Below, piece by piece: positions 60,921 through 61,913 of a stretch of DNA of 64,000 bases (positions are counted from its first letter, which is position 1; each line of letters begins with the position of its first letter). The notes under the pieces are model-generated. The model saw only the letters and a list, made by a program, of their open reading frames with translations, was not told the origin of the DNA and did not search any database. The stretch lies in assembly GCA_024571205.1 (NCBI GenBank), contig GCA_024571205.1_4523.1; one strand, 5' to 3'. The position numbers were made by a program, and so were the translations under genes. Origin of the DNA: a phage.

Positions 60921-61913
60921 ATGTTACCTGTTGTCGGAAAACTTATTTCTCCAAAAGAACTGGCTGAGATTATTCCTTTGTCGGAAGCTTACGCATCACA
61001 AGTGGCTTCTCATCGCGAACAAGTTAATTCGATTATGAATGGTGAAGACCCACGCAAACTTATTGTTGTAGGTCCTTGTTCAATTCATGACCCTATTGCT
61101 GCTGTTGAATACGGCAAACGTCTGGCTGAACTTCAAACTCGTCTTCCTAATGTTCTGTTAGTGATGCGCGTTTATTTTGAAAAGCCTCGAACTACCGTAG
61201 GTTGGAAAGGTCTTGTAAATGATCCATATCTTGACGGAAGTTTTGATATGAACCACGGTCTTATAGTTGCACGAACATTGTGTCGTAAACTTCTACGTAT
61301 GGGACTTCCATTAGCAACTGAAGTATTAGACCCATTCACGATTAAGTATCTTTCTGGTATTTTCTCATGGGTTGCTATTGGCGCCCGTACGACTGAAAGT
61401 CAGACACATCGTGAAATTGCTTCAGGTCTACCGATGTGCGTAGGCTTCAAGAACGCAACCAATGGTTCTATTAAAGTAGCTACAGACGCGATGTATAGTG
61501 CCGCCTGGCCTCATCGGTATATTGGTATGGACGTCGATGGTACTGTAGGCATTGTTGAAGCTGAAGGTAATCAGAATACGCATATCGTATTGCGTGGCGG
61601 GACCAACGGCCCGAACTATCATTCTTCTGATATTCAAGAAGCTTCTAACAAAGCAAGGGCAGTAGGTCTGAATCATTATGTAATGGTTGACTGTAGCCAT
61701 GCAAACGCTGAAGGGCATTATAGCAATCAAATTGGTATTGGTAAAAATTTAGCAGCTAATGATTTGGTCAAAGGAATTATGATAGAATCGTTCCTACATG
61801 AAGGAAATCAAAAAATTTCTGATAATATGTCCTATGGCGTTTCCGTTACCGATGCGTGCATCAGTTGGGAACAAACTAAAGAGCTGTTAACTTATATTAA
61901 TAAGGTTCAATAA
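60921..61913 (+). CDS. 3-deoxy-D-arabino-heptulosonate-7-phosphate (DAHP) synthase, class I (AroG/AroF/AroH-like)
   Basis: 330 aa; [63 protein letters not shown] match the recalled E. coli AroG core nearly motif for motif. Confidence 0.85.
   Translation: [330 protein letters not shown]

Follow-up and report, generated by a model that had tools for sequence, protein, structure and literature searches.

Why does a lytic T-even phage carry the entry enzyme of the shikimate pathway? The question is raised by a gene lying between pseT and cd in a 64,000-nucleotide stretch of phage DNA (assembly GCA_024571205.1, contig GCA_024571205.1_4523.1; the whole stretch is called the window below), which encodes a 330-aa class Iα 3-deoxy-7-phosphoheptulonate (DAHP) synthase, hereafter DAHPS. 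The window comes from a Mosigvirus-type phage and also contains a DNA-hypermodification cluster with a gene for a U32-family protein. The answer we favour, with a probability of about 0.62, is that a deregulated phage DAHPS feeds prephenate to this U32 enzyme. Such a role is suggested by the altered regulatory site of DAHPS, by its distribution among the Straboviridae and by the recruitment of an unrelated DAHPS subclass next to U32 in other phages.

An earlier note on the same DNA (the original prediction) had recognised an AroG-like protein by its motifs and offered two uses for it, namely prephenate for the U32-type protein or folate precursors for one-carbon metabolism. The protein, its motifs and its placement were confirmed by translation and by the Pfam and NCBIfam profiles. 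Pfam DAHP_synth_1 (PF00793) matched it with E=9e-75 (251.5 bits against a cutoff of 25.5), the NCBIfam aroFGH equivalog TIGR00034 with 427.3 bits (cutoff 173.2) and NF009395 with 454.4 bits (cutoff 343). The isozyme-specific models failed, with 363 bits against 568 for AroG (NF006723) and 386 against 463 for AroH (NF009396), and the closest solved structure was that of E. coli AroF (6agm, E=4e-105). By these scores, the phage protein is an ortholog of no single E. coli isozyme. The prediction had also called for a profile comparison with KdsA, that is, with the 3-deoxy-D-manno-octulosonate 8-phosphate (KDO8P) synthases. KdsA-type enzymes have a KANRS-type motif where DAHPS has KPRT. The KPRT motif is present in the window protein, and KdsA models were absent among its NCBIfam matches; judged by profile and motif, it is not a KDO8P synthase. 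The open reading frame (ORF) cannot be extended 5', its ATG being the first start after the preceding stop, and the opposite strand of the same interval is full of stops.

For the active site, we aligned the window protein with AroG, AroF and the orthologs of five other phage genera; the AroG sequence used is an exact match to PDB 1gg1. The metal ligands of AroG (C61, H268, E302 and D326) are all present in the window protein and invariant in the six phage genera and in all 119 aligned homolog clusters. The residues that bind phosphoenolpyruvate (PEP) and erythrose-4-phosphate (R92, K97-P-R-T100, G163-A-R165, K186 and R234) are the same as in AroG and AroF, and R92, KPRT, R165, K186 and R234 are invariant across the six genera. 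These invariant active-site residues and TIGR00034 bear out the earlier assignment to the class I DAHP synthases. We would predict a catalytically competent, metal-dependent class Iα enzyme that makes DAHP from PEP and erythrose-4-phosphate.

The feedback-inhibitor site, which the prediction had listed for checking without foreseeing the outcome, is altered. The window protein is 51% identical to AroF and 47% to AroG, and its N-terminus is shorter by about 9 residues, losing the segment with AroG D6/D7. At the positions of AroG P150, Q151 and S180 it has I, K and P, and at those of A202, F209 and S211 it has S, Y and G. In AroG, feedback resistance is complete with P150L and also arises with S180F; Q151 and S180 bind the inhibitor through its main chain (PMC9529685). 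We surveyed these positions in the best 120 homolog clusters from a database of 5.8 billion proteins. Positions 150/151/180 read IKP in 22 of the 24 phage-clade clusters, with IRP and PKP in one each; the 95 cellular clusters read PQS (88), VQS (6) or PQT (1), and the phage signature was found in none of them (0/95). All 24 phage-clade clusters have 8–12 residues before the position of AroG P19, compared with a median of 19 in the non-IKP sequences. Given the N-terminal truncation together with substitutions at the positions of known resistant AroG alleles, we infer that DAHPS of the phage clade would be insensitive to aromatic amino acids.

Comparison with characterised enzymes sharpens this picture. 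The phage enzyme shares with E. coli AroF and AroG (6agm, 1kfl) the family, the fold, the metal ligands, KPRT and the PEP and erythrose-4-phosphate ligands, as well as the Tyr-type Gly at AroG position 211. Unlike them, it has two shorter surface loops, is encoded by a lytic phage, and carries A202S and F209Y, which all phage orthologs share and none of the sampled cellular homologs has. Engineered AroG and AroF alleles (P150L, S180F, D146N and others), which serve to overproduce aromatic compounds, are changed at the same positions as phage DAHPS (150, 151, 180, 202), and their changes weaken or abolish inhibition by Phe or Tyr (PMC9529685). The same effect is presumed in the phage, where it would amount to an uncontrolled entry of carbon into the shikimate pathway. 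The phage variant differs from the engineered alleles in being natural and in combining several changes with the N-terminal truncation, and its resistance is predicted.

The proposed consumer of this carbon belongs to a cluster that has been described from RB69 and its relatives. RB69-type clusters make arabinosyl-5-hydroxycytosine DNA and contain genes for an arabinose-5-phosphate (A5P) isomerase, a bifunctional kinase/uridylyltransferase, a phosphatase, the U32 protein, a ThyA homolog, an arabinosyltransferase and a kinase (PMC13326640). The window has the same cluster as the Afh systems of RB69, HY126 and DLP3, and the DAHPS of HY126 is 97.6% identical to that of the window. The ThyA homolog of RB69, gp48, was shown experimentally to be a flavin/O2-dependent 5-hydroxy-dCMP synthase that does not use folate, and the hydroxylation is credited to this enzyme alone (PMC13326640). 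Prephenate, chorismate, U32 and DAHP go unmentioned in that paper, the Discussion of which cites the RlhA and TrhP pathways.

It is from these pathways that a link to DAHPS can be drawn. Prephenate is the stoichiometric oxygen donor of the U32 enzymes UbiU/V (PMC10990095). Prephenate and Fe-S clusters are also required by TrhP and by RlhA, the enzyme that forms 5-hydroxycytidine, and both act independently of O2 (PMC10990095, PMC5727448, bioRxiv 587956). For UbiU/UbiV, RlhA and TrhP alike, the aro pathway is required as far as prephenate. The phage protein, 99.2% identical to RB69 gp50, resembles them in its Peptidase_U32 domain (PF01136, 42.2 bits against a cutoff of 22.4). It has conserved cysteine clusters, with ten cysteines invariant across the phage subfamily, including C192/C203/C209/C233 and C340-x4-C-x3-C-x2-C352. 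It differs from them in forming a separate subfamily, in which the cysteine spacing departs from the published [4Fe-4S] motif CX6CX15CX3/4C and prephenate dependence is putative. The UbiU model gave only 18.5 bits, and a PDB sequence search returned no match. Across genera, U32 identity is 81–88%, against 59–77% for DAHPS and 29–47% for chorismate mutase in the same genomes, which implies an unusually strong constraint on U32.

The distribution of these genes rests on counts in BLAST summary tables and on the inspection of about 20 loci. By genus, the profile of the 213 DAHPS records is near-identical to that of the 222 U32 records, and the ThyA homolog of the 5-hydroxycytosine type occurs in 374 records. 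In Dhakavirus IME281 and Acinetobacter phage Mokit, the arabinose genes abut the ThyA homolog, and U32 and chorismate mutase are both absent; Dhakaviruses have no DAHPS at the pseT–cd slot, and DLP3 and Dhakavirus run the Afh system without U32, chorismate mutase or DAHPS. Four Acinetobacter records were matched by tblastn with DAHPS; two of these were listed, both short contigs from the MD-2021a bin. Such a distribution supports the suggestion that DAHPS follows U32 and not the DNA modification itself.

A further gene points in the same direction. In the U32-bearing lineages other than Mosigvirus, an AroQ-type chorismate mutase is encoded between U32 and the ThyA homolog, no more than three genes downstream of U32. 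The only reaction that we know of for chorismate mutase makes prephenate. Phage AroQ enzymes were found by tblastn in 51 records, the query having missed the divergent copy of Proteus phage PM2 (Bragavirus), and the Pfam CM_2 cutoff is exceeded by all five representatives that were tested. The three genes form a nested pattern, with U32 only in RB69, U32 and DAHPS in most Mosigviruses, and all three in five genera; no Straboviridae genome with DAHPS or chorismate mutase but without U32 was found in the BLAST tables or among the inspected loci. The PM2 mutase (128 aa, locus 443-829) has an N-terminal extension of about 50 residues unlike other phage chorismate mutases, and in this phage an inserted homing endonuclease separates the mutase gene from U32.

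Pairs of U32 and DAHPS also occur outside the Straboviridae. The U32 subfamily of the window (about 360 aa, 49–57% identity, 88 invariant residues including the 10 cysteines) is found on phage-like metagenomic contigs of up to 466 kb, nearly always among genes for deoxynucleotide metabolism or DNA modification. Its neighbours include a dCMP deaminase directly upstream (two cases), uracil-DNA glycosylase, thymidylate kinase, MazG/dUTPase-like proteins, NT5C, deoxynucleoside kinase, a TET-associated glycosyltransferase directly downstream, sugar-nucleotide enzymes and radical SAM/SPASM proteins. On an 80-kb contig, the gene right after U32 encodes a 248-aa class Iβ DAHPS core, which reaches 237 and 216 bits with the Iβ models of DAHPS against 63 with the KDO8P synthase model; for the phage Iβ proteins overall, the ranges are 202–256 bits on DAHPS models and 63–68 on KDO8P synthase models. 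The relatives of this protein form a discrete clade of 16 short clusters without a regulatory domain. Cellular Iβ enzymes reach at most 48% identity, and most have a ferredoxin-like regulatory domain and a few a fused chorismate mutase. In five of the six clade members with readable context, the Iβ gene lies 0–1 genes downstream of a U32 homolog, the gene order being U32, DAHPS, dCMP deaminase in one case and U32, DAHPS, ThyA-like in another. The contigs with such pairs carry replication modules of the PolB or DnaE type, and one PolB contig has a T4-like portal and terminase.

The closest solved relative of the U32-linked Iβ proteins is the 262-aa DAHPS of Pyrococcus furiosus (1zco), which we take to be unregulated. 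Both are bare catalytic barrels without a regulatory domain, and the truncated DAHPS of Thermotoga maritima can be grouped with 1zco as an unregulated class Iβ enzyme. The Iβ proteins belong to another subclass than the Iα protein of the window, and the two are a convergent parallel and not homologs in the narrow sense. Phages with this U32 have recruited DAHPS of two subclasses, each without a regulatory element. Genes of 247–254 aa downstream of U32 in megaphage-like contigs were considered as hidden DAHPS and rejected, as they gave no DAHPS signal. An 86-kb contig (10001-16360) contains two U32-family genes in one neighbourhood, together with NT5C, a nicotinamide mononucleotide transporter, a deoxynucleoside kinase, radical SAM/SPASM and a nucleoside deoxyribosyltransferase-like gene; this contig may encode a nucleoside-level modification or salvage pathway.

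Overall, the following route might be proposed. DAHPS would be expressed with the early nucleotide-metabolism genes, apparently coupled to translation of the dCMP deaminase, and would keep DAHP synthesis running when Phe, Tyr and Trp shut the host AroG, AroF and AroH in amino-acid-rich environments. The host enzymes AroB through AroC would carry DAHP to chorismate. Since no credible chorismate mutase was found in the 64-kb window, the mutase domains of host PheA/TyrA are proposed for the step to prephenate, which in the sister genera the phage AroQ enzyme would take. The phage U32 protein, a putative Fe-S enzyme, would then spend prephenate stoichiometrically as oxygen donor. We infer which way the flux runs, that it is U32 that consumes the prephenate and which substrate U32 acts on. 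Of the two uses originally proposed for the gene, prephenate for U32 is supported and strengthened by the U32-nested distribution, the mutase of the sister genera and the convergent U32–DAHPS pair.

It is tempting to go one step further and suppose that U32 hydroxylates pyrimidines at C5 without O2, with deoxycytidylate or DNA cytosine as substrate and at the expense of one prephenate per base, and that it is the anaerobic counterpart of the ThyA-like enzyme, U32 and DAHPS together making up a widespread, hitherto unrecognised hypermodification pathway in the phages of anaerobic and facultative hosts. We hold this extension only tentatively and would sooner bet against it. A precedent for such paired enzymes is T4, which carries both the aerobic NrdAB and the anaerobic NrdDG. 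A genome of about 169 kb at 37.7% GC has about 64,000 cytosines by our computation, and an assumed burst of 100–200 raises this to 6–13 million per cell. If U32 hydroxylates cytosine, a prephenate demand of that size would explain the carriage of a deregulated entry enzyme. The chemistry of RlhA, the position of U32 in the cluster, the deoxynucleotide neighbourhoods of its relatives and the U32-free Acinetobacter phages are consistent with an anaerobic U32 hydroxylase. Against it may be set the Dhakavirus coliphages, which lack U32, and RB69, which fully modifies its DNA aerobically without DAHPS. For the same reason, a rule tying U32 to host aerobiosis was dropped: it fits the Acinetobacter phages, which have strictly aerobic hosts and no U32, and is broken by the Dhakavirus coliphages.

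Several observations also weigh against the favoured role of DAHPS itself. Tegunavirus has U32 and chorismate mutase and no DAHPS at the pseT–cd slot, and RB69 keeps U32, has lost DAHPS and still has fully modified DNA in the laboratory (PMC13326640). Because these phages keep U32 without DAHPS, the latter would be an enhancer and not a requirement. The co-occurrence within the Straboviridae may reflect a single clade and be phylogenetically non-independent, and synteny is common to some of the metagenomic contexts, which are therefore not wholly independent either. In the window, DAHPS and U32 lie about 60 kb apart. PMC13326640 goes no further than to list the U32 protein as a possible 'sugar or heterocycle reductase'. 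The sixth member of the Iβ clade is found in a KdsB/KdsC-like polysaccharide locus, a caution that profile scores by themselves do not establish a substrate, and the substrate specificity of the clade is putative.

To these points must be added that a profile search with phage chorismate mutases found no credible mutase in the 64-kb window, a fact that the original prediction had overlooked. The 79-aa ORF between U32 and the ThyA homolog was tried as a cryptic mutase and rejected: it has no Pfam or NCBIfam match, reaches E=6.9 in BLASTP against the Entb_45 mutase and 0.2% probability in hhalign, and is carried by Yersinia and Serratia 92A1 phages in addition to a true chorismate mutase. A 248-aa ORF (15467-16213) gave a weak two-fragment match to the mutase profile (15419-16210; full E=2e-5, best domain 0.015) and no Pfam match, and the similarity is probably spurious. 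As for the 79-aa ORF, its YYxDAFxHS motif is invariant, and it could encode an accessory factor of U32.

How well do other roles account for the same facts? The gene might be a generic auxiliary gene that raises Phe, Tyr and Trp for phage protein synthesis and is not specifically connected with U32 or with DNA modification. As the committed step, DAHPS controls the rate at which all aromatic amino acids are made, the phage enzyme looks active and deregulated, and its distance from U32, as well as the uncoupling of the two in RB69 and Tegunavirus, would be natural on such an account. Yet most T4-like phages, including T4 and Dhakavirus, do without DAHPS, whose occurrence is limited to U32-bearing lineages, and an unrelated DAHPS subclass adjoins U32 in other phages. 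In the sister genera, U32 is joined by a chorismate mutase, and a phage prephenate dehydratase or dehydrogenase did not come to notice in any of the regions examined. Moreover, the rich media in which feedback bites already hold aromatic amino acids. We therefore regard a general supply of aromatic amino acids as improbable, if the most serious of the other roles. A supply of chorismate for p-aminobenzoate and folate, serving frd, td and the gene-42-like enzyme, was the second use originally proposed. The phage does encode dihydrofolate reductase and thymidylate synthase, and chorismate is the established precursor of p-aminobenzoate; nevertheless, this use is disfavoured. The gene-42-like enzyme turned out to be of the RB69 gp48 type, flavin/O2-dependent and without use of methylenetetrahydrofolate, so that the one-carbon demand lies below that of T4, and T4 itself has no DAHPS despite its heavier load. 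Folate is also used catalytically, with frd recycling it; pabA/B/C were not seen among the genes, and the phage mutase of the sister genera diverts chorismate from p-aminobenzoate. All this makes a folate role very unlikely.

Much the same low probability attaches to a sugar-acid synthase, which would join PEP to A5P from the phage KdsD-like isomerase, or to another aldose, for a sugar that decorates the DNA. DAHPS and KDO8P synthases do have a common fold and belong to one family (PF00793), A5P is a product of the phage cluster (PMC13326640), a member of the Iβ clade stands beside KdsB/KdsC-like genes, and epimerase or UDP-glucose-dehydrogenase genes occur near some U32–DAHPS pairs. The profile results argue the other way for the Iα and the Iβ proteins alike, the window protein keeps KPRT and all AroG substrate ligands, and the Dhakavirus and Acinetobacter lineages make A5P and lack DAHPS. 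In addition, the DNA sugar of RB69-type phages was determined as arabinose only (PMC13326640). Least credible of all is an ordinary feedback-regulated AroF of host type that was acquired incidentally, or a passenger that is decaying and has no selected function. RB69 has indeed lost the gene by a clean 1113-bp deletion and stays viable, but DAHPS is full length in every record found by tblastn, keeps its synteny and every catalytic residue across six genera at 59–77% identity, is fully ameliorated in composition, and bears a regulatory-site signature seen in none of the 95 cellular clusters. The supply of prephenate to U32 thus remains our preferred reading.

The history of the gene fits a long residence in these phages. 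DAHPS is 95–100% identical in about 140 Mosigvirus records, and all 213 phage records found by tblastn are full length. The same slot, with pseT, small ORFs, DAHPS, 0–2 small ORFs and cd, is found in Mosig-, Kanagawa-, Marfa-, Winkler-, Braga- and Kagamiyamavirus, among which the pairwise identities given above were computed. The GC content at third codon positions is 0.29, a value in the range of the phage genes around it, and no cellular homolog exceeds about 55% identity, the nearest coming from many phyla. The gene therefore has the marks of a viral auxiliary metabolic gene, namely full length in all records, synteny in six genera and phage-like composition. Because the slot is shared by six genera, the cellular homologs are distant and the composition is phage-like, the evidence points to a single old acquisition and vertical descent thereafter; a recent capture from a host was rejected on the same two grounds of distance and composition. 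Aeromonas phage HJ05 (79 kb, unclassified) has a 387-aa DAHP_synth_1 protein (locus 6257-7420), 38% identical to the window DAHPS and flanked by ParB-like, methyltransferase and Asn-synthase-like genes, which appears to be a separate acquisition. The homologs of HJ05 and of human-gut 'Bacteriophage sp.' were dropped as independent replicates, their contexts being uninformative or unverified.

The loss in RB69, the type phage of Mosigvirus, can be followed more closely. A 19-nt direct repeat flanks DAHPS, the upstream copy being a diverged duplicate of the ribosome-binding and start region of cd. The copies are spaced by 1113 bp, which is exactly the segment absent from RB69, and RB69 has a single copy. 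The parsimonious reading is that RB69 lost DAHPS by recombination between the repeats. A 55-aa relic ORF at 60800-60967 begins with the cd-like MRAISLLS.

The gene as such is no novelty. T4 lacks DAHPS, as does RB69, so the original prediction was right to place it outside the canonical T4 set; what it missed is that the gene is already widely annotated in GenBank, many of the roughly 140 Mosigvirus records naming it phospho-2-dehydro-3-deoxyheptonate aldolase, aroF or AroG. In the genome paper of phiC120, the DAHP-synthetase domain and the U32 domain are each listed on their own as curiosities (PMC8022965). Neither a purpose for phage DAHPS nor a link from DAHPS through chorismate mutase and prephenate to U32 was found in the accessible literature, although two recent subscription papers may assign genes. 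The existence of the gene is thus known, the phage variant is distinct and apparently deregulated, and the role proposed here appears undescribed in that literature.

The features on which the argument draws are collected in the table. The genes that the prediction had named around DAHPS (the U32-type and thymidylate-synthase-like genes, frd and td) hold as described. From pseT, the order is four small cd.x ORFs, DAHPS and cd. The stop codon of DAHPS overlaps the ATG of cd (ATAATG), which suggests translational coupling. No convincing dedicated promoter or terminator was found for DAHPS, and promoter-like sites are no more frequent than in shuffles.

Table. Features of the window, in order of position; coordinates are those of the 64,000-nucleotide stretch.
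Feature	Position	Strand	Basis
U32-family protein, RB69 gp50 ortholog, proposed prephenate consumer	42..1202	+	Pfam Peptidase_U32
79-aa ORF, RB69ORF049c family, YYxDAFxHS motif, between U32 and ThyA homolog	1199..1438	+	
Thymidylate-synthase homolog (ThyA homolog), 98.7% identical to RB69 gp48	1481..2197	+	
299-aa protein, RB69 gp46:47 position (putative DNA arabinosyltransferase 1)	2197..3096	+	position only, no Pfam match
182-aa P-loop thymidylate-kinase-like protein, RB69 gp45 position (nucleotide kinase)	3098..3646	+	
219-aa AdfA protein (Anti-DarT factor A)	9004-9663		Pfam AdfA, E=8e-125
frd, dihydrofolate reductase	50077..50664		
td, thymidylate synthase	50661..51521		
pseT, polynucleotide kinase/phosphatase (PNKP domains), upstream landmark of the conserved slot	58927..59826	+	Pfam
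Upstream copy of the 19-nt direct repeat, ATAATGAGAGCTATCTCAT	60797..60815	+	
Shine-Dalgarno-like AAGGA, 5 nt 5' of the DAHPS ATG	60911..60915	+	sequence
DAHPS, class Iα DAHP synthase, 330 aa, ATG start	60921..61913	+	ORF listing, Pfam, NCBIfam
Downstream repeat copy, ATAATGAAAGCTAGCACAT, 16/19 match, spanning the DAHPS stop and the cd start	61910..61928	+	
cd, dCMP deaminase	61913..62494	+	Pfam, ORF listing
Protein at the gp31.1 position	62484-62792		WYL_2 (Sm-like SH3 barrel) domain, E=3.6e-9

Among the other proteins listed, the one at the gp31.1 position has a WYL_2 domain, and the AdfA protein belongs to anti-defence and is unrelated to DAHPS.

If our interpretation is true, it would give a role to three unexplained genes of a recently described DNA-hypermodification system, those for DAHPS, chorismate mutase and the U32 'peptidase'. 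The sole hydroxylase shown for this system needs molecular oxygen, and the hosts live largely without it; how gut phages hydroxylate each of their cytosines anaerobically would then become a directly testable question. We would also be dealing with the first virus to rewire the shikimate pathway for prephenate as a reagent, and not for aromatic amino acids, and the chemistry of prephenate as an oxygen donor would extend from the trace modification of RNA and quinones to bulk DNA synthesis. The phage enzyme is a naturally evolved candidate for a feedback-resistant DAHP synthase, which makes it of interest to metabolic engineering. Many therapeutic phages of the Mosigvirus, Klebsiella, Proteus and Enterobacter groups carry these genes, and, should the proposed role hold, their performance at anoxic sites may depend on them.

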